Below, in pieces: positions 1 to 52,653 of a DNA stretch of 64,000 bases. The position numbers were made by a program, and so were the translations under genes. Positions within the stretch are counted from its first letter, which is position 1, and the number at the start of each line of letters is the position of its first letter. This DNA comes from a virus: the IMG/VR virus record IMGVR_UViG_3300021197_000993, positions 4,811-68,810 of that record; one strand, written 5' to 3'. The notes under the pieces are model-generated. The model did no database searches, had not been told where the DNA came from, and worked only from the letters and a program-made list of their open reading frames with translations.

Positions 1-1430
1 TCATCATAACTTGGGAGTTTGAATCCGTGTTCCTCTTCGCGAGTTTGTGCGAGTTGTCCAATTTGTTGACTTAGGTTGTGCATCTCATCTTCTTGAGGTG
101 TTCTCTTTGCTTCAAGTCGTGGCGTTCGTTGAATGTGCGGGTCGGGTCCGAAGTTGCCTCCTTCATGGCCGATTTCATGTTGGTCATGCATATACTCGCT
201 TGTGTCGCGCTTAGAGCGGTCGCGAGCAAAGTCATGGTGTCCTTGCATGGTTTCTCCACCAACCTTTGTTTGTGCGAATCGTGGCCTTTTCAACCCTTCA
301 CGATATTCGGAGGTGTTTTCATCATCTCGCATGTCCGGTCGCATGTTCAAGTCATCATCATTGTATTGCAACGAGTCTTCAAGCGCGCGTGCTTGTTGAG
401 CGTGGTTCATCACCGAGGGATGGACAGTATTTCCTTCCGAGTCGGTCATGTCGGGATTCGCTTTCAACAAAGCCCACGCCGCGTCCATGACATTTGTGCT
501 ATCGGAGGATGTGCGCTTGAGTCCATACATGTCGGCTTCAACCGCGTCCATGTCAGTCTCTTCGTGTTCCGAACCTGCCGAAGTTGGCGCGTAAGGATTG
601 GCCGCGCCGAATCCGTAAGTTTCACTTTCAACGCTACCCCTCGGTGCGCGCATAGTTGCACGCGGTGTTCTCCTTGTTTTTCCACTTGACGCGAACGGTA
701 AAGTGCTTGACGCTGTGGTCGCAGGTTCGTAGAACAAACTACCACGACCGCTAAACCTACCTGTTCTTGTGTGTGTGTCTTCGGGATATTCTCTCACTAT
801 GTCGGGGTCGTCTTCATAATCTTCACCCAATTCTTCATTCGGCTCCGGCTCGTAAAGAACATCATCGGGGTCTTCGGATTCGTTTCTTCGCTCTCCCCTT
901 GCCCCTCGCTGTTGTTGCCGCTCTTGGTTTCGTCCTTCATGCGCTCTTTCAGCAAGTTGGTCTATACGCTCTTGGAAATCCATGAATGGTCTATTTTGAA
1001 CTGACCCTCGGAACGCGGCAGGAGATACTTGTCTCCTTCTCAATAATGCCAGTAATCTTTCTTTTGGTCGTCCGTCTTCGTGAAAGGAGCCAGCGTTTTG
1101 TTGTTTCACACCACGCGCTCGTCGTATGGCCGCCATAATGTCAACATCGCCACCTTTGACTGCATCATTAAGCGACATGTTATGAGTATGCTCCATGTAT
1201 TTATTCATGAAATCTGCATCAACACCCGCGCGCTCCATGCGTTCATTGAGGAGATTAGGGTTATTTTCCATCTGTTCTTGAAATAATGCTTTGGTTGCGC
1301 GTTTTGTTTTATCCCCACCACCAATCCGTCGCGGACCACTTTTCTTGAGGTCGCCCTTCTTTTTCTTTGATGGTTTCCCAACACCAATAACGATGACCAT
1401 GCCGCCTTTTTTTGCTTTATTGCTCGCCAT
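1..1430 (-). CDS. Partial (runs off the left edge, >476 aa) hydrophilic low-complexity protein with an internal AWxxLK motif; probable internal virion protein
   Basis: Absent from the ORF track because it has no stop in the window. Hand translation from ATG 1430 (MASNKAKKGGMVIVIGVGKP...) stays open to base 1 and contains VMDAAWALLKA at ~459-491. Confidence 0.8.
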   Translation of the reverse strand, partial: MASNKAKKGGMVIVIGVGKPSKKKKGDLKKSGPRRIGGGDKTKRATKALFQEQMENNPNLLNERMERAGVDADFMNKYMEHTHNMSLNDAVKGGDVDIMAAIRRARGVKQQNAGSFHEDGRPKERLLALLRRRQVSPAAFRGSVQNRPFMDFQERIDQLAERAHEGRNQERQQQRGARGERRNESEDPDDVLYEPEPNEELGEDYEDDPDIVREYPEDTHTRTGRFSGRGSLFYEPATTASSTLPFASSGKTRRTPRATMRAPRGSVESETYGFGAANPYAPTSAGSEHEETDMDAVEADMYGLKRTSSDSTNVMDAAWALLKANPDMTDSEGNTVHPSVMNHAQQARALEDSLQYNDDDLNMRPDMRDDENTSEYREGLKRPRFAQTKVGGETMQGHHDFARDRSKRDTSEYMHDQHEIGHEGGNFGPDPHIQRTPRLEAKRTPQEDEMHNLSQQIGQLAQTREEEHGFKLPSYD

Positions 1431-1431
1431 T

Positions 1432-1626: not shown

Positions 1627-1785
1627 TCACTTCATCCCCTTGCGTAATCCATCCCAACATGCTTGTTGCAATTCTTCTTCCGACTCAAAGATGATGAACG
1701 AATCCTTTGATTCAATCGTAGCCAACCACATCGTAATGAAGCCAGCGATAAACGCCATCAAAAACGCAACCCACAACGGTATCAT
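1627..1785 (-). CDS. Small single-pass membrane protein (52 aa)
   Basis: ATG at 1785 overlaps the fibre stop (ATGA). N-terminus MIPLWVAFLMAFIAGFITMWLA is hydrophobic. Confidence 0.6.
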   Translation of the reverse strand: MIPLWVAFLMAFIAGFITMWLATIESKDSFIIFESEEELQQACWDGLRKGMK

Positions 1786-4208
1786 GGTATCGGCCCTCCT
1801 AATGCGAAGAGTTGCGCCGCTAATCGTTGTATTGCTGTATCTAAATCGGCAGGGGGCGCGCCCACCCAATTACCCGCACCGGGACCGGGGTTGTATGGTT
1901 CAGCACCACCTTGTCCGGCTGGCAAAGCGGCGGCGGCCAAAACACCTTGAGCCGCAGTAGCATAGTCGGCGGAGTCAAATGCCTTGACTTGCGCGAGATT
2001 GGTCACTTCACTATCCATTAACGCTCCCGCGGCAGTGACATTGGCCGCATCGGTCACATCTGCACCGTCTTCAACATTGAGTAGGGTTAGCACTTCTGCT
2101 TTGGTGATACCCGAAGCAAACACAGGCGTTCCACTGTTATCTTCAATAGCGGGAGCCGCGCCACCACCACCGCCCGAAGCCGCGGCCCATTTGACACCGG
2201 ATGCCTCCGCGCTATCGGCTGTCAAGACATGGGTATTCGTTCCTACCGCCAAGCGCGTGAGAGTGTTGGCGGCGGTTGCTACGAAGATGTCGCCCTTGGC
2301 ATTAACATCGGTTTCCATAACCGCACCAGCGGCGTTGACATTGGTAGCGTCAGTGACATCCGCGCCCGTTTCAATACCGTTCAACTTCGTGTGGTCAGTA
2401 TCGGTGAACACATTGGAGTCAGTAGCCGCTTCAACAGCCGCGCGTATTTCAGCATTGGTTTGGTCTGCTGTCGCGCTTGCTTCAATACCGTCCAACTTAG
2501 TTTTGTCAGCACCCGACATAGAACCTGCCGCGCTTGTTGTAGCCGCGCTTATACCAATTGTCCCTGTGGTTGTTATTGTCCCTCCGGTGATTGGTGCGGT
2601 TGTTGCTACACTCGTTATTGTTCCTGTGCTTGCACCTGCGGTGATACCGTCCAACTTAGTTTTGTCTCCGTTGGCGAATGCTCCTTCGGATGGAGGTTGT
2701 TGCGCGCTGTCAGCCTTTGCGCCTTGTGCGGCTGTTGCGTAATCGGATGCGGCGAACGCCTTGACTTGAGCAAGGTTCGTGACTTCGCTGTCCATCAATG
2801 CTCCCGCGGCGGTGACATTTGCTGTGTCTGTCACATCTGCGTTGTCTTCAATGTTGAGAAGTGTTTGGACTTCTGCTTTGGTGATACCTGTGGTGAACGC
2901 TGGTGTCCCGCTGTTGTCGTAAATCGCGGCAATCGCACTTCCCGATATGATGGCCGATTGATAGTCGCATCGTATCCAAACACTTCCTTCGTAAATGAAG
3001 GTAGCGCGGTGAGTTGGCCCCACTGTTTCATTAGCACCACTCAAGTCATCAAAAATGATGTTCCCTAAGCCGTTGTTGCACACTTCAATGATGTGTCCTT
3101 CGGGGAACTTGTAGTTGGTTCCGTCCTTTTCGGGTTGAAGTGTGATGTCAACACCTGCATTTGGCGCAAGCATGAAGAAAGAATCACCGTCCGATGTGAT
3201 AACCCATGTGCCGTTTGTGGTTAGCGCGGTAGTGGTTGCGTCAACACCCATACCTTGCAGACGCACCGAGTAGTGTCCGGTCTGTTGATTGTTGCGCCCC
3301 GCGAAATAGAATGTGTCAGCGACATGCCCTGTTCCACGGTCTGCGCCGCGCGATGGTCCTTGACCATATCCGGGGTCGCTGGCTGACGGTGGCGTTTGAG
3401 CAAAGGAGCCGTAGCGCGGATGACTGACCCAATGCACATTGACTGTATCTGTGGTAGCGAGTTCACCGTTATCGTTGTGAATGGCGTTGAGGTGTGCTAT
3501 GTTATTGATACCATGCGCGCCTGTATCAACAATTTCACCACTCGCGATTGCGGCAAGCGACAGCGGCACACGGTAATCGGCTGTGCTTTCTATGAATACA
3601 CGCTTGTCATTGATTTCAACAATGTTGAGGTTGTTGCTCCCACCACCACTGGCTGTGTATTGAACACGGACATGCGCAAGCACAATGGCTTTGGCGTTAT
3701 CACCCAACGAGAGTGACTTGTAGTTGATGAGATATTGGTTGGACGCGGATGGGTAAAGACCGGTCGTTGTATCTGCGGGGCTTCCACCTTCGTAGTGAAC
3801 TTTGTTGTTGCCGCCACTTGGTGCGACATAGATAGTGTAGATGGCTTCTTGGTTGGCTGATAGGGCAAGCGCGCCACTACCATGTGAACCGCTGTTGAGG
3901 TCAAGCGTGATGGTGTTGCCAACACCACTCCCGAACTCATAAAGCGCGCCGTCAAGCACAAGGAAGCCACCACTTACAGTGAGCGTGCTTGAAGAAGCGC
4001 GCACCATTGAACCGGGTTGGTTGCCGCTGTTGGTTTCGTTGCGTGAAGAGTCAAAGGCCCCGTCTTGGTATCGGATGATTCCATTACCATGCACACCTTG
4101 AATCAAGTTCGTTAATGTCGCAGGTGATAATGAATCCCCATCTCGTAGTCCGTCTTCACCAAGTGTGTTCTGCGCGGCTGTATGTCCCGCGATGTTATCA
4201 GTTGCCAT
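1782..4208 (-). CDS. Tail fibre / receptor-binding protein (808 aa)
   Basis: G/S/T/A-rich, with DKTKLDGI/DHTKLNGI repeats and a KGDIFVATAANTLTRLAVGTNTHVLTADS...GVKW module typical of phage fibres. Lies at the end of the tail module, with GAGGTGA RBS. Confidence 0.75.
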   Translation of the reverse strand: MATDNIAGHTAAQNTLGEDGLRDGDSLSPATLTNLIQGVHGNGIIRYQDGAFDSSRNETNSGNQPGSMVRASSSTLTVSGGFLVLDGALYEFGSGVGNTITLDLNSGSHGSGALALSANQEAIYTIYVAPSGGNNKVHYEGGSPADTTTGLYPSASNQYLINYKSLSLGDNAKAIVLAHVRVQYTASGGGSNNLNIVEINDKRVFIESTADYRVPLSLAAIASGEIVDTGAHGINNIAHLNAIHNDNGELATTDTVNVHWVSHPRYGSFAQTPPSASDPGYGQGPSRGADRGTGHVADTFYFAGRNNQQTGHYSVRLQGMGVDATTTALTTNGTWVITSDGDSFFMLAPNAGVDITLQPEKDGTNYKFPEGHIIEVCNNGLGNIIFDDLSGANETVGPTHRATFIYEGSVWIRCDYQSAIISGSAIAAIYDNSGTPAFTTGITKAEVQTLLNIEDNADVTDTANVTAAGALMDSEVTNLAQVKAFAASDYATAAQGAKADSAQQPPSEGAFANGDKTKLDGITAGASTGTITSVATTAPITGGTITTTGTIGISAATTSAAGSMSGADKTKLDGIEASATADQTNAEIRAAVEAATDSNVFTDTDHTKLNGIETGADVTDATNVNAAGAVMETDVNAKGDIFVATAANTLTRLAVGTNTHVLTADSAEASGVKWAAASGGGGGAAPAIEDNSGTPVFASGITKAEVLTLLNVEDGADVTDAANVTAAGALMDSEVTNLAQVKAFDSADYATAAQGVLAAAALPAGQGGAEPYNPGPGAGNWVGAPPADLDTAIQRLAAQLFALGGPIP
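1944..2930 (-). repeat. Internal ~70-aa duplication in the tail fibre (copies ~2721-2930 and ~1944-2150, partial third copy near 2310-2400)
   Basis: DNSGTPxFxxGITKAEVxTLLNxEDxADVTDxANVTAAGALMDSEVTNLAQVKAFxxxDYATAAQG occurs twice. Confidence 0.9.
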
Positions 4209-4554
4209 CGTCTTTCACCTCTTCAAATCTGTCTCTCAATACGGGCTTCCGCACAACGATGTGTCGTCCCCCACCTTTCATTTTTATTGGAGTTCCTTCT
4301 ACATTTTGCACGCGCACCACACCGGGTCGCTCGTTTGGATTTGACTTAGACTGTGTTGCAAAACCGCGCGCCTCTTGTGGGTCGGTCGTGAAGAAGAGTC
4401 CGGGGCTTGGTGCTTGAGTGTTGTCGGGATAGCGCACGCGCCCTTTCGGTTGCAGTCCCTCTTGGTTGGCTTGATTCATGCGCGATGTGCCATGATACCA
4501 CGGTCCTTCGGGTGCTTTGAGCAAACGCCATGCTTTCTCCATCGGACTCATCAT
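4198..4554 (-). CDS. ADP-ribosyltransferase-fold-like small protein with N-terminal AWxxLK leader
   Basis: WYHGTS...EGLQP...GLFFTTDPQEARGFA resembles the H-G-T and aromatic-F-T-T-D strands of ART-fold domains. N-terminus is MMSPMEKAWRLLK. Confidence 0.6.
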   Translation of the reverse strand: MMSPMEKAWRLLKAPEGPWYHGTSRMNQANQEGLQPKGRVRYPDNTQAPSPGLFFTTDPQEARGFATQSKSNPNERPGVVRVQNVEGTPIKMKGGGRHIVVRKPVLRDRFEEVKDDGN

Positions 4555-4901: not shown

Positions 4902-6568
4902 ATCTTCCTCCGTATTCGTCGTCCCTTCGTTGTTCGCATTTCATGTGCGCGCGGTCGGAGCATACGCACCTCCGCCGCTGAACCGGGTATTGCGGCCCCA
5001 CTTACCAAACTTACGCCTGTGAATGTAGTGGCTGTTTTTCCACTATACGATACGAGCGATTGGTCAGCGATGATGAGATGGCCGCTTGAGTCAAAACCAT
5101 CGGTGCTGGCGACCGTGATAGCCCCTGCCGCATGTGTGCCGCTGATGCGCTTCGTGATACCGAAACCAAGAGCCGACCGTCCCGCGCCATATCCGCTGTT
5201 GCGGTGAGCCAAAAGGATGCCAGCGTGGATGTCCGAGCCTGTATTCAACGCGCTCGTTTTGGTTCTCGCCAACTTACCGATGACCGGTCGCACCAGTAAT
5301 ACACCGCGCACTTTCAACTGCGAACTACCAACACCACTCTTGTTTATGCTGACTACTTGCTGACTGCGGTCTGCTTCACCTTCTTCGTCATCCATATCTG
5401 CGCTGTCTCCGAAGGCGTTGACCACGGCTTCAAGACCAGCCTCGTATGAAAGCATTTGAAAGTTTGAAGTCCCATCGGATTTGTGTTCTAATTCAATAAT
5501 ACCTTGACGCACATCACCAGCAGGTGATTTGTAATTGACAACATCACCGGGTTCTATGTCCCACGATTGCGCGTGTAGATTTGATTGCAACGCACCTTGT
5601 GCTTTTTTGTTAAGGCGAAGCATTTGATTTGCGCTACTTCGTGCCTTCGTTTCATTGTTGACCGTGGGGTCTTTGACTTTCATTTGCTTGATTGAGCCTT
5701 GTCGCTTCTGCGCTTCTGCATCATCAACTTCAACGCTAATAGCATCGTTGAGTGCAATACCTGTTCCGCGCATTAGGATGCGATTAGCCACATCAGTAAT
5801 AGGGTCAACCTTCGTTTTACCGATTCCGCGCTGAACACCTAAATCTCGGTCTTTGATATTGAAAATCTTTGGCGCGTAGATGAAGTTCCCAAAGCGGTCG
5901 TAATACATGATGTAGTGGTCATGTCGCCCAAGGAAACGCACTGCTGTGGGTAAGACAGTAGAGTTGAAGTTTTGCGCGACAAAGAGCGTGCTGTTGCCTT
6001 TTGACTCAACGCTGTTCAATCCATGCAGTGCTTTCGTAAACAACTTTTCAACCAAATCTGTGCTACGCAAACCCACGCTTATTGTTTGTCCAGCGTAAAC
6101 ATGAGTCGTATCAACCATTTGAAAATCGGCCAAACTTCTACCCTTCATGTTGATAAGTTCAATTTGCGCGCCTTTGGATGCTGATGATATGCCTTGCGTT
6201 CTCAATCGTAGAGTTGGGTCGCGAGTATCAATCAACAAAACAGGACGGTTTGATGTCGCGCTCATTTGTTGACCATCAAAGTAAGGAGCGTCTTCATGCG
6301 TCGTATGCGCTAATCTTACAGAAGATTGAGTCTCACTGATTCGGTAGCGACGCGGATGAGTTGGTTGAAAATCTGCTTGGTTTGGTTTGCTTACTTGTGT
6401 CTTTTTGCTGTTGTCTTGAACTGTTTCGTAAACAACATGGTGAACAGCATTGTCTACAAATGTCGGCTCTTCGGCGATGGCTCCGATTTCATCGTGAAGT
6501 TCTTTTGCGCGTCCAAGACGCTGACCAACATAGGAAGCGTTTGCTGGCGTAGGGACGGCAAATGTCAT
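4898..6568 (-). CDS. Baseplate hub / tail-tip (Tal-like) protein
   Basis: 556 aa with YYDRFGNFIYAP, NRILMRG and WDIEPGDVVNY segments typical of hub proteins; downstream of the tape measure gene. Confidence 0.6.
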   Translation of the reverse strand: MTFAVPTPANASYVGQRLGRAKELHDEIGAIAEEPTFVDNAVHHVVYETVQDNSKKTQVSKPNQADFQPTHPRRYRISETQSSVRLAHTTHEDAPYFDGQQMSATSNRPVLLIDTRDPTLRLRTQGISSASKGAQIELINMKGRSLADFQMVDTTHVYAGQTISVGLRSTDLVEKLFTKALHGLNSVESKGNSTLFVAQNFNSTVLPTAVRFLGRHDHYIMYYDRFGNFIYAPKIFNIKDRDLGVQRGIGKTKVDPITDVANRILMRGTGIALNDAISVEVDDAEAQKRQGSIKQMKVKDPTVNNETKARSSANQMLRLNKKAQGALQSNLHAQSWDIEPGDVVNYKSPAGDVRQGIIELEHKSDGTSNFQMLSYEAGLEAVVNAFGDSADMDDEEGEADRSQQVVSINKSGVGSSQLKVRGVLLVRPVIGKLARTKTSALNTGSDIHAGILLAHRNSGYGAGRSALGFGITKRISGTHAAGAITVASTDGFDSSGHLIIADQSLVSYSGKTATTFTGVSLVSGAAIPGSAAEVRMLRPRAHEMRTTKGRRIRRKI

Positions 6569-9500
6569 GCTCCCAACCCCGTATTGTCAGTTCTATCTCC
6601 TTCCGAACTGTGGTTGCTCGTGTTGAGTTTGTCGCCAGCGAAAAGCGATTGTGTGTAGCGCGGTTGCACCGTATAGTCAAGACGAACAAAAGACTCATTC
6701 CCGTCGTTTACCGACTGCCTACGAGATGCGTCCCCACGGAAGTGTTGCAGTGTGTTATTGCTTACAATCATACGCGCCACAGGTTGTGTTGCCAGTGTTG
6801 TGAAATCACTCGCTTCACTACCGGGTATTTTTGGTCCAACGCTCGCAGGTGCGCTTGTTGATGCTCCACTTCCCGAAATCGTAAACAGATAAACAGGCGC
6901 GTAGGGAGGGTTGCTTGGTGTTGGATTGCTGTTGCGCATGTAAGAAGACGCTCCATCAGCGGCGCGTGCATTTGGTGCATCGTAAACAAATACGCCGTAG
7001 CGACCGGCGGCGGTAGCGGATAACACATGCGTCGTATCATCACGGAATAATTCAATGTGTTGGTTGTCAAGCACGCGAACTGGACGCACAAGGAACTTGA
7101 TGGTTGTGTCTTTGGTGTTGGTCTTGTAAGAAGTTGAGTCGTGGTTGCTGGTTTGATATGGGTTGGTTGTAATACCGGAAGACGCACCCCAATGATGGTC
7201 GCTGATGTTTTCGCCATCCGACGACACCTCCATGATGTAAGTCCCACCGATTGGAGGAATACCGTGTGTTGTTCCAAACTTCATCACTTGCTTGGCTGAT
7301 GAAAGGTTAAGCGTGTGTAGGTTGAGGTTGTCAACTGCGCGGTTTGCTGTGCTGACACCACCTGCAAGAATGAATCGTTGTCCAACTTGTCGGTCGGTGT
7401 GAACGCTTGTTGCTTCTGTGCTGGCAATGATATATCGTGGCGACATTTCTCCATTGTTTTCAACCACACTTGTCCCATCTATCCCAATACGCGGTTTTGA
7501 TTTTGCAATTGGTTCTTGCATAAAATTGAAGTTTGATTTTTCAACATTCGTTCCTACATTCGCTTCGCGCTTGAGTAGTCCGTCATCACCTGCAAGTTCT
7601 AATTTTGCGCTTATACCACGAGGAACTTCATGAGATTGCAATTGAACATTTGAAGGGCGCAAGAAACCACCCATAAACGGAGGTTCACTGGTGTGGTGCG
7701 ACAAGACCAAACCGAACGGGCGCATATCCTCCGAAACATCTTGGAGTATGTCTTCGTTGAAGTATGTTGGATAACGAACACCGCGCCCATCACCACGGTC
7801 GCCTACGCGCTTCGCCGTAGCAGGGTCAAAGAAGTTGACACTGGCTTCGGAAAACACCATACCTGTTATTGTTGAATACATTGATTCAGCAGACTTTGTT
7901 CTATCTGTCGCGCGGTATGCATCTTCGGGGTCCCACGATGGTCGGATACCAAAACCGCGCACAGGGAAACGACGAACCTCTTCACCGGTTGTGTTGCCCC
8001 ACCAATCAATCATGTAGTGCGCTTGAGCCAATGCGAGGTTTACCCGTTGGTCATCAACATCTGTTCCGGCTTTATGTCCAGCCGGGAGGTCTGCGTGGAA
8101 CTTACGAATTGCTGTGGTTGGGTTGCGGAAGTTCCGAACCGCGCAACCAAACCCTTTGGTCATACGACGACCATCGCTGTATCGCACTTGTTGAAACTTG
8201 AGGTCGCTACCGATTAGCGCGGATGCGTTGGTTTGTCGTTCAATAATACCGACATAGTTTGGGTTGGTGGTTGCTGTGCCTGTTGTGTTTGAACTGCCCG
8301 ATTGTTGATTGATGCGCGTTGTTCCGTTTTGACTGCTGATAAACGGTCCCTCCGCTTGGAAGTGGTAGTAGGTTTGAGAATCGCGCAAACCTTGATTTGA
8401 TTTGATAGCCCATCGTGGACGATTGTAGGGTTGACGAAGAGACACACGGTATCCCCAACCTGCTTGTTTATGTGCAGTCTTGGACAAAATTGTTTCTGTA
8501 ATTGTTTCTACATCACCGTTTGTGATGACAAGTCCATCTGCATCCGACACTTGCTTGATGATGTTGCTATCCCATTTATCGCGCCATCCGGGTGCGGCTG
8601 TGCCGTAGAGTGATAGTGAACTCATCTGCGCACCAAAACGATGACCACCCGGCCAAAACGCACCGAGGTTGTATTTGCGCGACTTTCCATCTACCCCTGC
8701 TTGATTGATAAGCGCGGCTACCGAATATGTGTCAGCGATTGAACCATCCACATTGCTCGGTGATTTCATTCGGAACTTGAAGGGACCATCGCTCATAGCG
8801 TAAGTAAACTCATGGTAGTGAATCATTTCAAAGTGTTCGGGTGCGTGGTTGTATGCTTTCTTGTCAACCGCGGGGTCATTCTTAGTTGCTCGGTCTGTTT
8901 GACTATCGGAGAACCATGTCATCGGGCGACCGAGGTTGTAATGCCATAGGCACAGATACGCGTCGGGTAAGTGTAGGCTGTTGGTATCTCGCGTTCCCGA
9001 TAGCAACTGTGGTAAATTGCGCGTAGCCACGCTTGCTTTAGAGTTGGTGTAAACTTCACCAGCACCAAGGTTGTTGTATTTTGATTTAAGTCGGACAGTT
9101 GCGTTTTGAACAGCCGCAGTCCAAAATCCACTTGTTATGGCCGCGACCGAGTTAAAGACGACAGGCCCATTCGCACCTACACCGCTGATGTATCCTCGGT
9201 CTTCGTATGATGCTGTTTGCTCTACCCCATTATCATCAACAATAACAAGATATTGCGCGTAGTAGTCTGCCCCAGCAACAGGGAACAAATTGTTGTTGCG
9301 CACATACAGTTTGTTGTTCCCTTGGTCCGCATGTTCAACATTTGCGACAGGCGTAAGCGATGTAAGGTAGTCTGTGTAAACATCAAGATAATGAGACGGG
9401 TATCCAAGCATCGTGGTTTGTGTTCCGACAGCACCAAGCGTAGAGCGACAGAACAAGTAGTAATCGTCGGGATGATACAATTGAGAACCTTTCCACGGTG

Positions 9501-41116: not shown

Positions 41117-41466
41117 TGGTCAATCCTCCTTCCTTCTGCTTGCGCGGCTGTGTCAGCCATTGCGTGAATCTCATCCCATGACATCTCATGCCATTCTTCA
41201 TTTGACGCTGGCATATTCATACCAGCATCGTCAATAGCGGCGGCGGCTTTGCTGATAACTGAATCGCGGTCGCCTCGTAGTGGGTCGCCCCAAACATCCT
41301 CGTTTGCGGGAGTGTTGGCGCGAACGAATCCAGCGCGCTTAAGAAGAAGTTCGGGAGTGTCCATGCTTTTTCGCATAGCGTTGATTTCAGCATCCATAGT
41401 CTCCATTTTGCTGATGAGTGCTTTCATCAGCATCATAGCGTCTCCGGATTCTTCCGACACGCTCAC
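41113..41466 (-). CDS. Small scaffold-like protein
   Basis: Coiled coil plus C-terminal MSWDEIHAMA, matching MSWDDVHRLA at the end of the protease/scaffold. Confidence 0.65.
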   Translation of the reverse strand: MSVSEESGDAMMLMKALISKMETMDAEINAMRKSMDTPELLLKRAGFVRANTPANEDVWGDPLRGDRDSVISKAAAAIDDAGMNMPASNEEWHEMSWDEIHAMADTAAQAEGRRIDQ

Positions 41467-41807
41467 ACCTGTCCTTGCTTCTTGAAGTGGCTACCGATTC
41501 GGTCGGGGCCGATGTAGCCCATTGGTCGGTCATTAGATTTCGCGATAACACCTTGAGTGCTGTTGAATTGCATGACAGGCGCGCCACCAGCGAACATATC
41601 GTTGACACCAAGAATGCGGTCATTTTGACCGGTTTGTGATTTGTAGATTTGACCGACATCATCCGCGAGATAATCGCTGGTTGATTGAATACTTCGTAGG
41701 AATTGTTCGGCTGATACAAGGTCGTTGTTCGCGAGTGCAACCTTAAACTCCGACACAGCGGTTTCAAGTTTGCGCACCATCGGGTCCATCTTCTGCAATA
41801 GGCTCAT
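41463..41807 (-). CDS. Hypothetical head-module protein
   Basis: 114 aa. GGTTAAAG lies 24 nt upstream of the ATG, a possible archaeal TATA box for a leaderless transcript. Confidence 0.7.
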   Translation of the reverse strand: MSLLQKMDPMVRKLETAVSEFKVALANNDLVSAEQFLRSIQSTSDYLADDVGQIYKSQTGQNDRILGVNDMFAGGAPVMQFNSTQGVIAKSNDRPMGYIGPDRIGSHFKKQGQV

Positions 41808-43689: not shown

Positions 43690-45068
43690 ATCATCTCCAC
43701 AAGTCGGTTGGCATCGTCAAGAAGACGAAGGGTTTCACCGTCCCGACTAAACATCGCATGAACTCCCGCTTCATCAATGTTCCACTCTTTCAACAACTCT
43801 TCACGCTTATCGGGAACATCTTTCCAATTCAACCATTTGACAACACGATAAAGTTCGTCGCGTCTTGATTTTATGATGTCAGTTTTGCGACCGCGCAAAT
43901 CCAGTAATTCAAGGACTGCGCCAGCCTGTCCTTTTTTCATGCGGAGATGTGGGCGGATACCTTTCATCAGTGAACGAAGGTCGTTTTCGGAATAGAATTG
44001 AAGACGGTGTTGAGTGCGTCGGCTGTTCTTGTGGATTTTCAAATCAGTTTGTAGCACGCCACATCCAAGTGCTTTGTGTAGTTGTTCGCAATGCAACTTA
44101 CCCCGCTCACCTGTTGCAATGAAACCAGCACGAGGCTCAAGTCGTTTGGTGATGGTGATGTATCCGTCAGCATCAAGGAAACCAGCCGCATACGCCCAAA
44201 CATCCTTGAACACCATTGTGTTATCGCGAACAATACCCCACCCAACGCCGACCTTTTCAATATCGTATTCTACACCATGCATTTTGAAAAGCGCGCTTAG
44301 TTGAGAAATTGAAAGATTTTTGATTTTATCCATGCTCGCGAAAACCTCACTTGTAGGTAAAGGACCGCGCTCTTCAAGAATTGTAGCGGCTTTTGTTAAA
44401 TAAATAGCATCCGTTTTTTTGATGTTATCAATAGAATGAAGCGCGTTCCTCCATTCCTTTTTTGCGTTCTTTTTAACCTCTTGACAATCAACCCACAGTT
44501 GCCTTTGTTCATCGTTGAAATCACCTTCAATCAACAACAATTTTGTGATTGAATCATTGGCTCTTTCCCATTGAACACAAGCACGACGAAGCGCATATTC
44601 GCGTGATTTGCCGTGTTTCCGCAACGCTTGTAAATCTCTTTCACTGATACCCAAATTGCGAACAGTCGGCTCATGTTTACCAATCCAATCAATGGATTGA
44701 AGCGTAGCCTCTACTTCTTGCTTCTTTGCGATACGGATAGCGTCAATTGCATAGTCAATGGCTTCACGCATTTCTTTGTGTTCGCGTCGCGCCATGCGGA
44801 GGTCTTTCACTAAATCCCCAGCACCACGACCAAACATAGACTGAAACCAACCACCTTTGGGGAGAGAACGATTGAGTTGCTCCCGTATTTTCTTCTTCTC
44901 TTCGCCTTCTTCAATTTGATTTGGGCGTGGAGGTGTAGGGTTGGCATTGGCTTCACCTTGACCTTGAGATACAGGCATAGGCGCATCACCAAATGTAGGA
45001 CCCTCAATGACATTCTTCAACAACGGATTATCGTTGAACAGGTTGGAGTCCGATAAATCAATTTTCAA
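43686..45068 (-). CDS. Free-standing LAGLIDADG-domain protein with long N-terminal extension
   Basis: YAAGFLDADGYITI, LGCGVL and IRPHLRMKKGQA; single motif; TTG start after AGGTGA. Confidence 0.8.
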   Translation of the reverse strand: MKIDLSDSNLFNDNPLLKNVIEGPTFGDAPMPVSQGQGEANANPTPPRPNQIEEGEEKKKIREQLNRSLPKGGWFQSMFGRGAGDLVKDLRMARREHKEMREAIDYAIDAIRIAKKQEVEATLQSIDWIGKHEPTVRNLGISERDLQALRKHGKSREYALRRACVQWERANDSITKLLLIEGDFNDEQRQLWVDCQEVKKNAKKEWRNALHSIDNIKKTDAIYLTKAATILEERGPLPTSEVFASMDKIKNLSISQLSALFKMHGVEYDIEKVGVGWGIVRDNTMVFKDVWAYAAGFLDADGYITITKRLEPRAGFIATGERGKLHCEQLHKALGCGVLQTDLKIHKNSRRTQHRLQFYSENDLRSLMKGIRPHLRMKKGQAGAVLELLDLRGRKTDIIKSRRDELYRVVKWLNWKDVPDKREELLKEWNIDEAGVHAMFSRDGETLRLLDDANRLVEMI

Positions 45069-45210
45069 CGCGATTCACCTTTCTCTCATTCCAAGCCATT
45101 ATTTGCGGACTACCGTTTTTCTCCCAACACTTTTTACAAAATCCAAAAGGATATACCTTATCTGTTGTGTAGCAACAAGTGTGATAGTGATACTCAACAG
45201 ATTGGGTCAT
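45058..45210 (-). CDS. 50-aa Cys/His-rich peptide
   Basis: Below the cutoff. TAATG-coupled: MTQSVEYHYHTCCYTTDKVYPFGFCKKCWEKNGSPQIMAWNERKVNRVEN*. Confidence 0.55.
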   Translation of the reverse strand: MTQSVEYHYHTCCYTTDKVYPFGFCKKCWEKNGSPQIMAWNERKVNRVEN

Positions 45211-45623
45211 TAACAATTCCACCTTTTCAACGCCGCGCCTTTCGGAGTCATCTTACCACCTTTGCTGGTTGGACCTTTAACGCCACTCATTCGCGCGCAA
45301 AAAGACTTTCTACGCTTGGCTTTTTTACCGCCCGGTTTTAGTTTGCTTGGTTTTGTCGTGACCGGAGGTTTGAGGTTTGCACCACTCTTTCGCTTTGCCG
45401 CGGCGCGACCTTTCGCGTTCAGTCCACCTTTGCGACTGTGTTTGTTTGGATTGTATCCGTGAAACGGCTTGCTCTTTTTCTTCGCTTTCAACACCGTGTT
45501 TGCAATGTCAAACGGTGAGCAACATGTGCAAAACGACACCTCTTTCGCGATGTCGTCGTCGTTCATCATTGCTAATTCTTCTGCTGTTATTGGTTCATGC
45601 ATTATGTATTCGTATTCTGTCAT
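45210..45623 (-). CDS. Highly basic small protein (DUF6321-like) with acidic pro-region
   Basis: GGLNAKGRAAAK...NLKPPV...RRKSFCARMSG...ALKRWNC, a pattern recalled from marine phages near terminase genes; not searched. Confidence 0.7.
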   Translation of the reverse strand: MTEYEYIMHEPITAEELAMMNDDDIAKEVSFCTCCSPFDIANTVLKAKKKSKPFHGYNPNKHSRKGGLNAKGRAAAKRKSGANLKPPVTTKPSKLKPGGKKAKRRKSFCARMSGVKGPTSKGGKMTPKGAALKRWNC

Positions 45624-45624
45624 G

Positions 45625-46080
45625 TTATCCCCTCGTCAAATGATGATACCCGCATACGCATGGGTATGTTGAAATCGGTCGTCCCGATTGGCGCGATTGA
45701 TAGTCTCTATCGCGTTCCGCATGTGCGGGTGATTCGTATTTGTTCTTCTCCGGAGTAGGGCATGGTGGATAATTACCGCGACCCTTCATGAACACCCACG
45801 CCTCGTCCATCCCTTTAACGATGGTGGGCTTTCCGCCTACGCCCTGTTTCTTGCTACGCTTGCGTTTCGTTGCCGCGCGCTTTTGACCTGCTGACATAGA
45901 ACCGCTGGTCTTCGGAGTCTTGCTTGATACCTTGACGGAGGGGCGACACTTGGGGTATCCTTTGCTACCCTTCTTTGCCTTAGAACGCCCACAGGGAGGA
46001 TGCTTACCATCCTTACCTGTGCGCGAAACATCAACCCACTTTTCCTTGAACCAACGATTCAAGTTTTTCTCAACCGTCAT
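45625..46080 (-). CDS. Highly basic protein (DUF5872-like) fused to an AWxxMK-led zinc-finger domain
   Basis: LNRWFKEKWVDV...CGRSKAK...YPKCRP, then MDEAWVFMK, then C...YPCVCGYHHLT. Confidence 0.7.
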   Translation of the reverse strand: MTVEKNLNRWFKEKWVDVSRTGKDGKHPPCGRSKAKKGSKGYPKCRPSVKVSSKTPKTSGSMSAGQKRAATKRKRSKKQGVGGKPTIVKGMDEAWVFMKGRGNYPPCPTPEKNKYESPAHAERDRDYQSRQSGRPISTYPCVCGYHHLTRG

Positions 46081-46280
46081 TTTCCAGCCCACGCATCACA
46101 AATATATTCTTTGTTGCAAGTAAAATCATACCACTTGCAGTAGCCCGTTTGAGGGTCTTCTGTTGCTGAATCGTCCCACGCCTTGCAGTTGCCACACTTC
46201 TTCGGACCTGTGGCCTTGCGATAATTCGGCGCGTCTTTCTTGGCTTTCATCAAAGCCCACGCTTCTTCAAGAGGAATCAT
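46077..46280 (-). CDS. HiPIP-like Cys protein with AWxxLK-type leader (67 aa)
   Basis: MIPLEEAWALMK, then NY...KKCGNC-x15-C-x12-CDAW, the Cys/aromatic spacing of small high-potential iron-sulfur proteins. Confidence 0.6.
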   Translation of the reverse strand: MIPLEEAWALMKAKKDAPNYRKATGPKKCGNCKAWDDSATEDPQTGYCKWYDFTCNKEYICDAWAGK

Positions 46281-46468
46281 TTCTTTTTGCCTCCCTTCTT
46301 TTTCTTGAACTTGCCGCGACAGTATTGAACAGCCCATCCATTTGCATACGCGCTTGGATAAACTTTGAACTTACGCTTCGCCGCGGCCTTACCCGCCGGA
46401 CACAGTTTCTTCTCAAGATAGCCGAACGCGGCTTCTCCGCCTACGCAAAACTCACAATTACAAGCCAT
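46277..46468 (-). CDS. Small basic protein
   Basis: CPAGKAAAKRKFKVYPSAYANGWAVQYC and a Lys-rich tail; resembles small basic phage proteins recalled near terminases. Confidence 0.7.
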   Translation of the reverse strand: MACNCEFCVGGEAAFGYLEKKLCPAGKAAAKRKFKVYPSAYANGWAVQYCRGKFKKKKGGKKK

Positions 46469-46497: not shown

Positions 46498-47898
46498 TCA
46501 ATCTAACAACCCCTCCATTATTTCATCCAAGTCCACAATGCGCTCACGGAACTCCGTGGTGGCCCAATGAGCCAACGCGAGAGCAATAGCAAAGTCATCG
46601 TGCCTACCAATACTGTCAAGCCGACCTTTCTTGCTCATACCAAACATAAGCAACTCTCGTTCAAGTTCCGACATCATCGTTCGTGAACGGTCATCACCCC
46701 ACGGCAATCGCATCTGCTCATTTTCAAAGCGCAACACCAAACCCATGAGAAGAGACTCACGGCGTTGGCGTGTGGAGATGAATGTTTTGATAGGGAGGTC
46801 TGTATCTGCGCGTAGTTCAGTAGCGAACACACGCTGAAAGTTGTTGGCTTCAAGTTCAATAACATCGGGATTAAACTTCGCGTTGAGTCTTTGAATCTCC
46901 ATTATCTGTGTTCGGAAGTCCATATTCTTGCGACGAACCGCGTGAACCAATTCAAGCAGTTCGGGGTTGGTTGATGGGCGACGAAGCACCACCATGACAG
47001 TATAGTCAGCCGCGCGGTCCGAAGAAATAGCAGGGTCCCAACCGATGAAGTATTGGTCATCGGGGTCGCCTACTTCGCGTTCAATCAGTTTGAGTGTGTT
47101 GTCTTTTGCGGCTTGCAGAATGGTTGAAGGGAACAAACTGCTCACATCGTCCATTGGTTCGCACAAGTATTCACGAGCAAATGCGATGGCTGGCATATCA
47201 TTGCGACGCGCATCAAGAGAATCTAAATCCCAACGCTCCGGCCAAAGAGCCTCACCTTTGGCGTTGATAGCAGGGTAGGTTTCAACGAGATAACCCTCCC
47301 TACTCTCCAACTCCGTGTAAAGGTCAGTTGGTGTAAACGGTGTCCCGACAATCATCAATTTGGATGTGTGGTGAAGTGTAGGAACAAGAACCTCGTAGAA
47401 CCATGAAGCAACGCGAGCGAGTTCAGTATCAGTCGTTCCCCACAGAATGTCGTCGCAAAGGATGAGGTCGGGGTGAATACCACGGATAGCACCACCAACT
47501 GACTTCGCGCTAATGTTGGAGCCGTTGCTAAAACCGAAGAATGTCTTTGACCAAGAATCTGCTTTCTTCATTTTCGCGAGGAACGGCACTCCATCAATCA
47601 AGTCATTGAGTGTGCGCATGTGGTGAATGGACTGATGAAGACTGTGTGAAATTAACACGGCTTTGGTCTTTGGGTTAAACGCTGTTTTCCACAGCATGTA
47701 GCCAAGAAAGAGCGTTGATTTACCGTGGTCGCGAGCCGCTTTGACACAATATCGTTTGCGTTTTTCAAGGTTGTTATACCAGTCTTCGTGATGATGTGAT
47801 AATTGAAAACCGAGTATCTCTTCAAAAAAGAATCTAAAATCGCGCTTCGCTACCTCAAAGTCAATCTCTTCAATTGCTTCAAGTGATAGGGATTGCAC
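46498..47898 (-). CDS. terL: Terminase large subunit
   Basis: Walker A AARDHGKST, Walker B ILCDD, coupling motif VGTP, FAREYLC, RNase H IGWDPA...DYT, and C-terminal HDDFAIALALA. Confidence 0.95.
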   Translation of the reverse strand: MQSLSLEAIEEIDFEVAKRDFRFFFEEILGFQLSHHHEDWYNNLEKRKRYCVKAARDHGKSTLFLGYMLWKTAFNPKTKAVLISHSLHQSIHHMRTLNDLIDGVPFLAKMKKADSWSKTFFGFSNGSNISAKSVGGAIRGIHPDLILCDDILWGTTDTELARVASWFYEVLVPTLHHTSKLMIVGTPFTPTDLYTELESREGYLVETYPAINAKGEALWPERWDLDSLDARRNDMPAIAFAREYLCEPMDDVSSLFPSTILQAAKDNTLKLIEREVGDPDDQYFIGWDPAISSDRAADYTVMVVLRRPSTNPELLELVHAVRRKNMDFRTQIMEIQRLNAKFNPDVIELEANNFQRVFATELRADTDLPIKTFISTRQRRESLLMGLVLRFENEQMRLPWGDDRSRTMMSELERELLMFGMSKKGRLDSIGRHDDFAIALALAHWATTEFRERIVDLDEIMEGLLD

Positions 47899-47904
47899 AC
47901 TTCA

Positions 47905-49581
47905 TCACCGAATCTTGAACCCCTTCAACAGTGAATCCCACGCCGCTTGGTGCTTATCCGAGGACATTTTGAACGCACCACCTTCGGACATACCGCCCTC
48001 GTCGTCTTCTTGTTCGGTTGGTTCACCAAAGTTCAATTTCATACCCTTGGTTTTTTCTTCTGCGATGTCTTTTGCTCCTTCTGTATCACCAGCGGCAATA
48101 GCCTGTTGAAATCGCGGGTCGGCTTGAAGCGTTTGCATGAAATACTTTCCTTGTCGCGATTTGGGGTTAAGACCAAAACCGTCAAGCATTTCTTGTGTAA
48201 TTTTCATCGCGGTGTCGGCAGGGTCAAAACCTGCATCCATCATGCGCTGTGCTAATCCCGATTGGCTACCTTTTTCTCCAATCGTGCGCTGGCCGTAATA
48301 CTGTCCTTTTTCGCGACCCTCTTTGGATGTAAGGTAATCGCGGATTCGGCCAAGTTGTCCGCCATCGGCTTCGGTCGCCATAGCGGTTTCTCCACCACCG
48401 CCTTCCATAGCCATTCTCTTGCGCTTGTTTTCTTGCACTTTGTCAAACAACTTAGCCGCTTCATCCGCTTTTGAAGGTGTTGGTGCGGCTGGTTCAGCCG
48501 GTGCTTCGGGTTCAACCGGTGTCGGTGGCCCCGCTTGAGGAGCCGGTGGTTCTTCGGTTGCTGGTGGTGTTCCAAAGTTCAAATCTATACCAGTCGGTCC
48601 GGGGTCTGTGTCAGTGAGCGCACTTTCTTCTTGCTCCTGTGTCCCCGGTTGCATCTCTTCTAAGGATTCTTCTTCTTCTACGGCTGGCTCTTCTTCTGCA
48701 CCACGCATCATGTCGGGTCGGAATGCTACACCCGCGTCTTGCGCTCGCTTTCTGTCGCGCATTTGTCGTGCGCGGTCAAATCGCCCTTGCATCGGCTTTT
48801 TCGCACCCGCTGTTATGTCAGCAATTTGTCTGTCTATTGCTTGTTGCGTTGTCAATTGATTACCTTCTTCATCATCCATAGGGTCAATGTTAAAGTCTCG
48901 CGCTAATCGTCGGTTTTGCTCACCTTCAAACGCAAGCATGTTTTCATCATAACCTTGGCTACCGGGGACATAACGCCTCATGGCTTGTTGTCGTCGTTGT
49001 TCGGTATCAGCGAGCGCGCCTTCAAGACGAGTGCGTCGCGCCGCTTGGTTGTCACGCTCGGATGATGCTCGGCGATAATCGCGGAACGCGCCGGGTAGTT
49101 GTCGTGCCGTCGCGAATCTGTCCTTCATGCGTTGACGCACTCCGGGTTTAATGAGGCCACCAAGTGAAGCGACATTCCGGAGAGCCGTTCCAGCGGCCAT
49201 CATAGGTTGACCACTCACAGCATAATCTCGCATTTGCCCGCGATAGGGTTGACCAGTAGCCTGTGCTTCGGACAACCGCTGTCCAGCACCTATACCCTGT
49301 AAGTTTTGAGAAAAGTTTTGTCCACCACCTTGTGCCATCAACTGGTCATTGGTGAAGTTTTGGCTAAACGCAGGTTGTTTCCGAATGATGTCGGGGTGTG
49401 AATTATCGCGTTCCGCGATTGCTTTGATAAGCGGTTCCCAAGTGTTATCCTCAACGCCAAAAAACACATAATTGATGTCGCTAAGGTTGCCCCCTTTATT
49501 GATAATGAACTCAACAGTTCCGTCTTCTTTACCATGCTTAAGCATGCTGTCGTTCCATTCAATCTCCCAATTATCAACCAT
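47905..49581 (-). CDS. Hypothetical low-complexity protein (probable internal/ejection protein)
   Basis: Start taken at ATG 49581 (MVDNWEIEW), overlapping the upstream stop. Q/R/E/P-rich; ends with AAWDSLLKG. Confidence 0.7.
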   Translation of the reverse strand: MVDNWEIEWNDSMLKHGKEDGTVEFIINKGGNLSDINYVFFGVEDNTWEPLIKAIAERDNSHPDIIRKQPAFSQNFTNDQLMAQGGGQNFSQNLQGIGAGQRLSEAQATGQPYRGQMRDYAVSGQPMMAAGTALRNVASLGGLIKPGVRQRMKDRFATARQLPGAFRDYRRASSERDNQAARRTRLEGALADTEQRRQQAMRRYVPGSQGYDENMLAFEGEQNRRLARDFNIDPMDDEEGNQLTTQQAIDRQIADITAGAKKPMQGRFDRARQMRDRKRAQDAGVAFRPDMMRGAEEEPAVEEEESLEEMQPGTQEQEESALTDTDPGPTGIDLNFGTPPATEEPPAPQAGPPTPVEPEAPAEPAAPTPSKADEAAKLFDKVQENKRKRMAMEGGGGETAMATEADGGQLGRIRDYLTSKEGREKGQYYGQRTIGEKGSQSGLAQRMMDAGFDPADTAMKITQEMLDGFGLNPKSRQGKYFMQTLQADPRFQQAIAAGDTEGAKDIAEEKTKGMKLNFGEPTEQEDDEGGMSEGGAFKMSSDKHQAAWDSLLKGFKIR

Positions 49582-51385: not shown

Positions 51386-52653
51386 TGTCCACCTCTTCGC
51401 ACATACAAGTCATACGGATGCGCGCCCCAGCGTGTCGCGTCATCATCGGGGTCAGTCTCCGTCGCACCCGTTGGAGCGGATGTCAAACCACCCGACGCGT
51501 TATCACTTGGTCCTTCACTCGCACCTTGCATGGATTTGTCTTCTTTCCGCATCATGCGTCGCAACAAATGATTGAGTTGGTCTATTAGTTGACGATATTC
51601 AATTTTATCGCGTGGTGAAATGCGATTGGTAATTTTAACACGCTGTGCGCGCGCTTTCAAGAACTCCTCGGATGCAAGAATAGCGTCGGATGCACCTATG
51701 CCACCAGCACCGCCAGTAAGCGATGTTGCTTCGGACATAATTTTACCACCCGGTGTTTTTGCTGTGCGTGGTTGGCGCATTGCTTTACCGTGTGGTCGTG
51801 AATCACGAGAACCGCGAATTGCTTTCGGTATTCGCGCCTTCGGAGTCACTGTGGGAATAGGTGGTGTAAGGTCTTGTGTGGGTTGACTTTGACGCTGTTG
51901 TTGTCGCATAGCCTCCGCTTCACGCTGTCTTGGGTCGGAGTAAGATTGTTTTGCTCGTGAACGACCACTCGCACCACCAACTCGGATGGGTGCTGTTCGT
52001 TGTCGGTAGGTGTATCCCGCACCAAACGAAGCATACGGAGCGCGAGCGGCACTCATACTTGCCATGTATTGCGGTTGGCGTATGTTCCCCGCTTTGAGAC
52101 GGACACCGCTACCCTTTTTTCTTCGCTTACGCTTGATTGATTCGGTGGTGACATTTTTACGCGCTTTCCGTTTTTTACCAGTTTTGGCGCGTTCACGAGC
52201 GCGAATTGTTTGAATTGTAGTCGTTTTCTGCGGTTTATCGGTATCAAACTTCGGCGCATCTTTTTTCTTACGAATCATTTCAAATGCATCGTCAATGAAT
52301 GGAGCGGTGGAGAGCATCATGTTCATACCCATACCGCTTGCGCGTGGGTTTGCACCAGCGTTGGCTTCACTTTGTCCGACTTGTCCTGTGAGTTGACTCA
52401 ATTCAGCCTGTTGTTTCACTTGACTGTCCTCTTCGTCATCGGGGTCTTTTTGCGGTATTTTGACTTTCATGTGTTGCAATCCTTGCAACTTATGTGCGCG
52501 CTGTTCTTGTTCTTCACGCTTCTTCGCATCATCTCGTGCGCGCTCATCGGAATCTTCGCGACCGACAGTTGAATCGCCCTGCAACTCTTCTGCGCTCTCG
52601 CGAGGGTTGAAACGCATACCTGCTGTTCCGCCTTCGGGTCCACCAACCATCAT
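51382..52653 (-). CDS. Hypothetical protein with Arg/Lys-rich core
   Basis: 423 aa. The acidic N-terminus switches to basic after PFIDDAFEMIRK. GGAGGTGA RBS. Confidence 0.75.
   Translation of the reverse strand: MMVGGPEGGTAGMRFNPRESAEELQGDSTVGREDSDERARDDAKKREEQEQRAHKLQGLQHMKVKIPQKDPDDEEDSQVKQQAELSQLTGQVGQSEANAGANPRASGMGMNMMLSTAPFIDDAFEMIRKKKDAPKFDTDKPQKTTTIQTIRARERAKTGKKRKARKNVTTESIKRKRRKKGSGVRLKAGNIRQPQYMASMSAARAPYASFGAGYTYRQRTAPIRVGGASGRSRAKQSYSDPRQREAEAMRQQQRQSQPTQDLTPPIPTVTPKARIPKAIRGSRDSRPHGKAMRQPRTAKTPGGKIMSEATSLTGGAGGIGASDAILASEEFLKARAQRVKITNRISPRDKIEYRQLIDQLNHLLRRMMRKEDKSMQGASEGPSDNASGGLTSAPTGATETDPDDDATRWGAHPYDLYVRRGGH

Follow-up and report, generated by a model that had tools for sequence, protein, structure and literature searches.

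Why would one virus set the same short amphipathic peptide, closing with a lysine, on proteins that are otherwise unrelated? The question is raised by a stretch of 64,000 nucleotides (nt) of the virus contig IMGVR_UViG_3300021197_000993, hereafter the window, which comprises bases 4811-68810 of the 68,810-nt contig and in which the long open reading frames (ORFs) all lie on the minus strand. A preliminary description of the window had reported such a peptide in unrelated ORFs. Our analysis confirms seven strong copies at the places it named, four of them true N-termini with Shine-Dalgarno sites, and reveals that this tag is portable between unrelated payloads, at N-termini as well as at domain junctions, and is confined to one virus lineage, the magroviruses, and almost wholly to the strand of the capsid gene. 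As to its meaning, we tentatively favour an address label for the prohead and virion. The copies and their weaker variants are the following (aa, amino acids):

4516-4551, minus strand: N-terminal tag MSPMEKAWRLLK, starting a 117-aa ORF whose orthologues begin likewise.
25912-25950, minus strand: N-terminal tag variant MNPFRESWGTLLK, one residue longer, starting a 48-aa Cys-rich ORF.
30514-30549, minus strand: N-terminal tag MNAFETAWRLLK, starting a 122-aa ORF; the top-scoring site of the contig (29.4 bits).
46245-46280, minus strand: N-terminal tag MIPLEEAWALMK, starting a 67-aa ORF, the start being set by a Shine-Dalgarno site and nine orthologues.
462-491, minus strand: internal tag VMDAAWALLK, at residues 317-326 in a 479-aa ORF that extends beyond the window edge.
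45784-45813, minus strand: internal tag GMDEAWVFMK, residues 94-103 of a 155-aa DUF5872 protein, behind the DUF5872 domain.
47923-47952, minus strand: C-terminal tag-like HQAAWDSLLK, residues 590-599 of a 604-aa ORF directly upstream of the large terminase.
52267-52302, minus strand: weak variant PFIDDAFEMIRK in a 423-aa basic protein, whose gene-order counterparts in the related records G001 and G002 are fully tagged.
45486-45518, minus strand: tag-like SPFDIANTVLK ahead of a DUF6321 domain; orthologues have SPAELAFEVLK, without Trp.
46409-46438, minus strand: GEAAFGYLEK, listed for its resemblance alone.

In all four N-terminal copies the ATG stands 3-9 nt after a GGAGG-like Shine-Dalgarno site. 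Several copies have instructive counterparts in related viral records (G000-G007) and in loci from public viral contigs (L-numbers, with L107 in G002 and L109 in G003): relatives of the Cys-rich peptide (L035, G007) have a canonical tag, the part that follows VMDAAWALLK (ANPDMTDSEG...) is a free-standing, N-terminally tagged gene in relatives, and the G002 orthologue of the DUF5872 protein has its tag at residue 480, ahead of another module. HQAAWDSLLK lies five residues ahead of the stop, in an ORF for which no orthologue was found in G001-G005, and an eighth, degenerate copy, PMDIALRLLK, is found in the next ORF of the contig, directly beyond the window. The weak variants of the preliminary description fared unequally. 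PFIDDAFEMIRK is probably a decayed tag, because its 456-aa counterparts in G001 and G002, placed by gene order, hold two full internal tags, GEPMENAWSTLIK and GEPMEDAWSTLMK; by BLAST the 423-aa protein of the window finds a match in G004 only, not in G001 or G002. The membership of SPFDIANTVLK is doubtful, because Trp is absent from every orthologue seen, and GEAAFGYLEK has its resemblance alone in its favour. A degenerate tag at the N-terminus of a 2002-aa head-module protein was likewise considered and rejected, as it is not conserved in orthologues.

A chance origin of the tag is ruled out by residue shuffles, by an external scoring matrix and by a reversed-codon control. The regular expression [AS]W.{2,3}[LMIVF]K, applied to the 47 proteins of the window (21,101 aa), matches nine times against a mean of 0.84 (maximum 5) in 200 residue shuffles, of which none (0/200) reached nine; the enrichment over shuffled proteomes, which had been named beforehand as a check, is thus about 10-fold. 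Two of the nine matches, in the ORF at 28601-30181 and in a 5129-aa ORF, lack the remaining motif and are probably due to chance, and the plus strand of the window has no match to the expression. A scoring matrix built from external loci only finds, in the window proteins, five sites of at least 14 bits where 0.10 are expected, and four of at least 18 bits where 0.01 are expected. Finally, a DNA pattern back-translated from M-x-[PA]-x-E-x-A-W-x-L-[LMI]-K found 102 loci among 2.9 million viral contigs, and the same codons reversed found none. The loci yielded 109 matches and 78 unique sequences; for 76 of the 78, the 50 codons ahead of the ATG contain an in-frame stop, and for 64 a Shine-Dalgarno-like 4-mer lies upstream.

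The consensus, M-x-[PA]-[FLM]-E-x-A-W-x-[LF]-L-K, is 12 residues long; in its wider form the peptide reads M-x-[PA]-[FLM]-[ED]-x-A-W-x-[LF]-[LMV]-K, and E5/D5 and L11/V11 variants occur, as in G003. The search pattern had left position 4 unconstrained, yet all but one of the 76 unique sequences that reach 20 aa have F, L, M or I there. Information per codon is at background level from codon 13, directly after K12, and the unconstrained third codon positions within the tag hold 0.08-0.55 bits. Because third positions are free and the information drops after K12, the tag is a discrete unit that is selected at the amino-acid level and not as DNA. The payload begins directly behind the Lys, as had been supposed. 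In shape the tag is an amphipathic helix complete in itself, with about 2.5 turns and often a Pro on either side, and in the 16-member family of the gene starting at 30549 the residues M1, E5, A7, W8, L11 and K12 are invariant together with three others.

With the tag removed, 76 payloads fall into 42 clusters without mutual BLASTP similarity at E < 1e-3, which bears out the proposal of a modular tag on unrelated payloads. The accessory genes of magroviruses are nearly all dark matter: a Pfam match was obtained for one of 47 tagged representatives (a sub-threshold match to PARP) and a PHROG match for two (of unknown function). In the window the N-terminal tags precede four payloads:

4198-4515, minus strand: small domain with ADP-ribosyltransferase (ART) fold, YHGT right behind the tag (AlphaFold2 model and Foldseek).
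25804-25911, minus strand: 35-residue Cys-rich peptide directly downstream of the tail tube gene (from the ORF).
30181-30513, minus strand: Gln/Glu-rich payload, probably a coiled coil; a core gene in relatives.
46077-46244, minus strand: 55-residue CxxC protein directly downstream of the large terminase, with nine orthologues.

The first of these had been called ART-like, and this holds at the level of the predicted fold. The AlphaFold2 model of the 117-aa product (4198-4551, with 14 relatives) has a pLDDT of 78.4, and the 12 top Foldseek matches are all ART-fold enzymes (KptA/Tpt1, Arr), with PARPs and the catalytic domain of diphtheria toxin also among the top matches. The best match (E 6e-3, probability 1.00) has a TM-score of 0.51 normalised by the query and of about 0.35 normalised by the target, so that the model places the payload in the ART fold by a structural match of weak to moderate strength. 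A relative gives the sub-threshold Pfam match to PARP (E 5.5e-5), and H-G-T is conserved in most of 15 aligned ART-like sequences, in which the later Tyr and Glu columns of the catalytic H-Y-E (or R-S-E) triad are unreliably aligned. The same H-G-T signature directly behind the tag is present in seven of 76 unique tagged proteins and in five of the 11 genes of the G003 array; a word-index homologue search with the ART-like protein returned five close relatives only. The tag helix (residues 3-12) has a mean pLDDT of 54, compared to 80-90 for the ART-like domain, and is therefore not predicted as part of the ART-like fold. The Cys-rich payload matches no Pfam or PHROG family. The coiled-coil payload gene occupies a constant site in relatives, 2.2-3.3 kb downstream of the start of the capsid gene, and in some of them continues in frame from an upstream domain as a fusion that retains the tag. 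As for the 67-aa product, which had been described as HiPIP-like, it is a CxxC protein, but its resemblance to HiPIP is only a weak lead.

The location of the tags is best read against the structural genes of the window:

46498-47898, minus strand: large terminase (Pfam Terminase_6N and 6C).
41839-43689, minus strand: portal protein (Pfam Phage_portal, E 4e-9, score slightly below the curated cut-off).
33301-34749, minus strand: prohead serine protease (Peptidase_S78, domain at about residues 1-180; Pfam E 1.7e-9) with a helical, scaffold-like C-terminal half.
32153-33301, minus strand: major capsid protein, SU10-type HK97 fold (Pfam).
25960-27897, minus strand: tail tube protein (Pfam).
23092-24798, minus strand: tape-measure-like protein (PHROGs).
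1782-4208, minus strand: tail fibre (PHROGs).

Identity between the portal protein of the window and those of G001, G002 and G004 is 57-76%. Relatives of the capsid protein occur on at least 600 viral contigs and number 1438 in the protein collection; 80 capsid-centred loci (928,227 nt; capsid identity 75-99%) were retained for analysis and scanned with the matrix at a cut-off of 16 bits, a start codon not being demanded. All matches at or above the cut-off (53/53) lie on the strand of the capsid gene; a start codon stands three codons ahead of 36 of them, and the other matches are internal to longer ORFs. In ten longer records the core A-W-x-h-h-K (h, hydrophobic) falls on the capsid strand in 59 of 63 matches, and a reversed-pattern control gives none in each record; a binomial test of 59/63 against a share of 65% gives about 1e-7, with matches that are not independent. 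G007 (complete) and G006 (98% complete) each consist of two large gene blocks, one per strand, and in these two genomes no match of at least 14 bits lies on the opposite strand, all being on the strand of the terminase, portal and capsid block. The scan of related genomes for variable payloads in late modules, proposed in the preliminary description, has come out positive, with its 102 loci and with the bias of the tags to the capsid strand. The core tagged genes occupy fixed places, after the terminase, between the capsid and neck genes, and beside the tail tube, and tagged arrays flank the structural block on one side or the other, where it borders on the other gene block.

The arrays can be large: in G003, 11 tagged genes follow one another in tandem, and G001 and G002 each possess seven with N-terminal tags, plus internal copies. 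An HMGL-like gene (aldolase / pyruvate carboxyltransferase family) lies amid the tagged arrays of G002 (L107:9088-9912) and G003 (L109:3729-4736), and the other gene block of G002 encodes an ArdC-like anti-restriction protein with a zincin metallopeptidase domain (L107:15862-16818). Tags are also found within fused ORFs. In L165, which is near-identical to the window, a single ORF opens with a tag and a module about 160 residues long, after which another tag leads into the coiled-coil payload; a Zn-ribbon domain precedes tag and payload in L145 and L162, and a Zn finger does so in L188, L193 and L205. G007 and the 456-aa protein of G001 and G002 have two internal tags each, of the form G-E-P-M-[DE]-x-A-W. 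Since fused ORFs and free-standing tagged versions both occur, the sequences indicate that genes fuse and split at tag boundaries, and the tag stands ahead of a module in each case.

The contig is a magrovirus, a tailed virus of the abundant marine archaea Poseidoniales, on account of its capsid relatives, of a Poseidoniales single-cell contig with capsid gene and tags, and of its thermosome; the preliminary description was right to speak of an archaeal virus. It holds the capsid, portal and terminase genes and a chaperonin gene, and the link to the host is given by a Candidatus Poseidoniales single-cell genome, of which a 106-kb contig combines this capsid gene with three tagged genes. Magroviruses of groups A and D are reported to encode thermosomes (PMC5434244). 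In our contig the plus strand has a thermosome-like ORF (group II chaperonin) at bases 2200-3699, within the 4.8 kb outside the window; it runs towards the tag-bearing ORFs that close the structural block, and G003 and G005 also have one. The magrovirus capsid gene is present in 26 of the 45 tag-bearing records searched, most of the others being fragments; among the four that are at least 90% complete it is present in three, and the fourth has only a chance-like tag match. A scan of 185,579 species genomes, one per prokaryote species, returned 28 loci, yet no cellular Poseidoniales protein with the tag, the archaeal matches being only on the viral contig. Use of the tag by the host can be dismissed, as the remaining loci are a mis-binned viral contig, short ORFs and an unrelated Glaciecola permease family. 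Some magrovirus contigs or capsid proteins (L142, P0013, P0014, P0024) are filed under Parvibaculum, Phenylobacterium, Luminiphilus and Alteromonadaceae; evidently these are viral contigs binned into bacterial genomes.

What might the tag do? The reading that we put forward, tentatively and by analogy, is that of a prohead or virion address label of the kind of the T4 capsid targeting sequence, with removal after the Lys as its best form. It is suggested by a portable N-terminal peptide with a sharp end at one residue, by an ART-like cargo, by the position among morphogenesis genes and by polyprotein-like fusions. Circumstantial points are the restriction to the capsid strand, the parallel of the packaged ART Alt in T4, and the tag ahead of each payload in fusions. 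In this mechanism, docking, cleavage, packaging and injection of the tagged proteins are all inferred: the tag helix would dock on a conserved site of the assembling head, for which the scaffold-like half of the protease, the three small scaffold proteins (40766-41807), the interior of the capsid protein and the giant head-module protein are candidates; the S78 prohead protease would then probably cut behind the closing Lys; and the payloads would stay inside the head until they reach the cell along with the DNA. A more far-reaching version, possible but less probable, is that the tag is a universal, portable 12-residue label of magroviruses by which an exchangeable set of effectors, up to about a dozen per genome and several of them ART-like, is loaded into the capsid for delivery together with the DNA; genes could then fuse and split freely at tag boundaries, because the prohead protease would cut each unit free.

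Cleavage is less certain than targeting. The S78 protease (33301-34749) is a candidate for the tag-removing enzyme, and two patterns are compatible with Lys-directed cutting. Among 111 diverse capsid proteins, 87 have I, L, F or V at residue 32, while at residue 34 a K is found in 83 and an R in 15, so that residues 32-34 read hydrophobic-x-Lys; a conserved [AKTS]-D-[AD]-P...T-T-G (ADAP...TTG) block follows, and the N-terminal part ahead varies in length. In the proteases, F-R-I-L-K (174-178) is invariant in 30 of 30 sequences and forms a low-confidence stretch of the model right behind the catalytic domain, which leaves it ambiguous as a Lys-cleavage site. A complex prediction that combined the capsid protein and protease-scaffold with residues 1-40 of the tagged coiled-coil protein (with alignments) gave no verdict (score 0.00, without controls) and is neutral on binding. 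A literature search for Lys-specific prohead proteases or processed haloarchaeal capsid proteins returned nothing usable. Apart from the tag, the protease (33331-33360, minus strand) and another 117-aa protein, encoded downstream of the portal (41155-41184, minus strand), have a C-terminal motif in common, [MD]-W-[DS]-[DE]-[VI]-H-x-[LM]-A, which is retained in G001, G002, G004 and in the 53 protease relatives listed. It is probably a capsid-binding tail of protease and scaffold, and would then be a second, separate addressing signal.

Several observations weigh against an address label that is cut off in the prohead. Four of the 63 core matches lie on the opposite strand, and since the large tandem arrays adjoin the other gene block, their early expression is conceivable. 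The conservation of the tag far exceeds the need of a cleavage site and therefore indicates a specific receptor. The N-terminal motif P-[ILV]-[IL]-L-K-[GS] of the protease, invariant in 30 of 30, had to be discarded as evidence of cleavage: it is strand 21-24 of the modelled fold, a beta-strand, and its conservation is therefore uninformative. Nor is a removed capsid propeptide evident, because among 118 close relatives residues 1-30 show the same degree of conservation as the remainder of the protein. That the HK97 protease cuts after Lys does not establish the specificity of the S78 protease considered here, and the viruses are uncultured and known here from their genes alone.

The tag might instead dock its carriers on some non-capsid partner, for instance a hub protein of the host or a factor of the virus itself, such as its chaperonin, the carriers being cytoplasmic and neither packaged nor cleaved. 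We regard this as the strongest competitor, although unlikely. A short Pro-bracketed amphipathic helix that is found at N-termini, internally and near a C-terminus behaves as short linear motifs do, its very high conservation over divergent genomes suggests a single conserved receptor, the payloads are effector-like, and the arrays adjoin the non-structural block, in G003 and G000 next to the thermosome gene. However, tags are almost missing from the strand with the replication and other genes, the core tagged genes are interspersed with head, neck and tail genes, no cellular Poseidoniales protein in the species genomes is tagged, and a chaperonin is present in only 12 of 26 magroviruses according to PMC5434244. 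Less probable again is that the tagged genes form one hyper-divergent paralogous family, of which the helix is merely the best-conserved structural element, without any addressing. The tandem arrays of 7-11 tagged genes do resemble products of duplication, and several of their members have the ART-like H-G-T signature directly behind the tag; viral multigene families, moreover, often retain just a short N-terminal motif. Yet the payloads range from 24 to more than 400 residues in 42 clusters without detectable similarity, with compositions as incompatible as a Cys-rich peptide, a CxxC domain, a coiled coil, an ART fold and basic low-complexity sequence; conservation stops abruptly at K12, the helix is unpacked and of low confidence in the ART model, and the tag also stands behind unrelated upstream domains (Zn fingers, DUF5872).

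Two further explanations would take the tag as a membrane anchor or as a piece of DNA. An amphipathic helix that directs proteins to the cell or to a viral membrane would be in line with a hydrophobic moment of 0.38-0.78 (9-residue core) and with Trp, Phe and Leu on one face, but has very little probability in our view: the tag offers only about 9-10 helical residues with a net charge near zero, typical membrane-targeting helices being longer and more basic, and both the restriction to one strand and the sharp boundary at the Lys would be left unexplained. The least probable of all is a nucleotide-level element for translation initiation, regulation or recombination, with the peptide as its by-product. 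Its position at gene starts behind Shine-Dalgarno sites would suit such a role, and a shared stretch of DNA would aid a cassette-like exchange of payloads; it is, however, disfavoured by the free third codon positions, and paralogues in one genome differ in their codons and internal copies lie far from any start.

The window contains other genes that merit mention. A SAP-domain protein (E 6.9e-15; 25370-25816, minus strand) is encoded between the tail tube and tape-measure-like genes, an unusual site for a DNA-binding motif. Three giant ORFs, all on the minus strand, have no Pfam families: 6565-21954 (5129 aa), 34746-40754 (2002 aa) and 56923-63792 (2289 aa). The 2002-aa ORF lies within the head module, flanked by the scaffold and protease genes, and its G002 orthologue has a faint match to ATP-dependent DNA ligase (E 4e-4); we consider its product a candidate for a packaged giant protein. 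The interval between terminase and portal (45210-46468, minus strand) encodes four strongly basic proteins of small size (phrog_27331, the 67-aa protein with its tag, DUF5872, DUF6321), which could be DNA-associated internal proteins of the head; a 460-aa protein with an HNH-like domain (43686-45068) comes after them. Upstream of the packaging genes, small conserved proteins (53605-53838, 56276-56800 and 55311-56069, minus strand) have hydrophobic, probably membrane-spanning stretches; they are common to G001, G002 and G004 and belong to no known family.

Has such a tag been described before? The preliminary description knew of no such system, and none was found in the magrovirus literature: the main texts (supplements aside) of the magrovirus papers, PMC5434244 included, mention no N-terminal motif, cargo or ADP-ribosylation. 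The literature on capsid targeting sequences and archaeal viruses, judged by titles, abstracts and passages, contains no tag of an archaeal virus, and the hexapeptides of the tag, searched as text strings, led to unrelated papers only. Within these limits of the literature the tag is undescribed, although its function would be of a known kind, that of a capsid-targeting propeptide; no relative of it is known when sequence, protease family and host are considered. If it is an address label, a sequence rule would pick out virion-delivered or injected proteins of uncultured viruses from metagenomes, the question of injected proteins would become testable for an uncultured archaeal virus with a few clones, and a short cargo tag for a shell of HK97 type would be gained. 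If it is a docking motif instead, the tag still marks a large and coherent set of effectors and indicates one conserved receptor.

The closest comparison is T4. Its capsid targeting sequence is an N-terminal peptide of 10-20 residues on the internal proteins and on the ADP-ribosyltransferase Alt, which binds the prohead core and is then removed by the prohead protease, as outlined in PMC7411985. The T4 system (IPI, IPII, IPIII and Alt, with the protease gp21; PMC7411985) has in common with the magrovirus tag that a short N-terminal peptide stands on otherwise unrelated proteins, one ART cargo among them; the T4 genes lie among the late genes, and the T4 peptide ends at its cleavage site. The conservation of the magrovirus tag ends at the Lys. 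A short N-terminal peptide on unrelated proteins is what we find in four copies of the window and in the 42 payload clusters of its relatives, but homology is not indicated: the protease is a Peptidase_S78 and the tag ends in Lys, and it is therefore an analogue of the T4 sequence at most, not a member by descent. The T4 prohead protease cuts after Glu and belongs to a different family from S78. Unlike the T4 peptide, with which it has no sequence similarity, the magrovirus tag is much more conserved, occurs in fused proteins as well and on up to 11 genes per genome, and has an archaeal host. In phiKZ-like giant phages, the prohead protease recognises a common motif at which it cuts many proteins of the head interior, the ejection proteins gp53, gp54 and gp47 of SPN3US among them; their N-terminal propeptides are proposed to direct them to the prohead (PMC7411985; PMC10052503). 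As described there, these propeptides are 111-130 residues long, with the motif A-x-E, and have no single shared portable sequence, unlike the magrovirus tag.

Other systems share single features with the tag. Encapsulin cargo-loading peptides are short conserved peptides on diverse cargo that bind the interior of a nearby-encoded HK97-fold shell; they are usually C-terminal, have a different motif and are not cleaved. The magrovirus tag likewise combines a conserved terminal peptide, diverse cargo and an HK97-fold shell gene, in the same strand block as the capsid gene, but it is N-terminal or internal, and it belongs to a genuine virus capsid, the genes for portal, terminase, protease and tail all being present, whereas the encapsulin shell has no portal, terminase or tail. 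In the staphylococcal phage 80alpha, the capsid and scaffold proteins have a common N-terminal extension that the host L27 protease Prp cuts at a fixed residue, and here too the same short N-terminal motif stands on unrelated proteins. The 80alpha motif, however, copies the extension of a host ribosomal protein and marks two structural proteins, and is no address label; for the magrovirus tag the species-genome scan gave no cellular counterpart. Prohead proteases and scaffolds can have a short C-terminal capsid-targeting tail that brings them into the prohead, as HK97 gp4 does. SPN3US gp245 has such a tail too, according to a passage of PMC7411985. Tails of this type resemble the C-terminal motif common to the protease and the 117-aa protein of the window, which differs from the tag in lying at the opposite end, in having another sequence and in occurring on two proteins only. 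If the more far-reaching reading of a universal label is true, no system that addresses cargo would have been described from an archaeal virus before the magrovirus tag, which would have arisen convergently to the targeting sequence of T4 and to the loading peptides of encapsulins.

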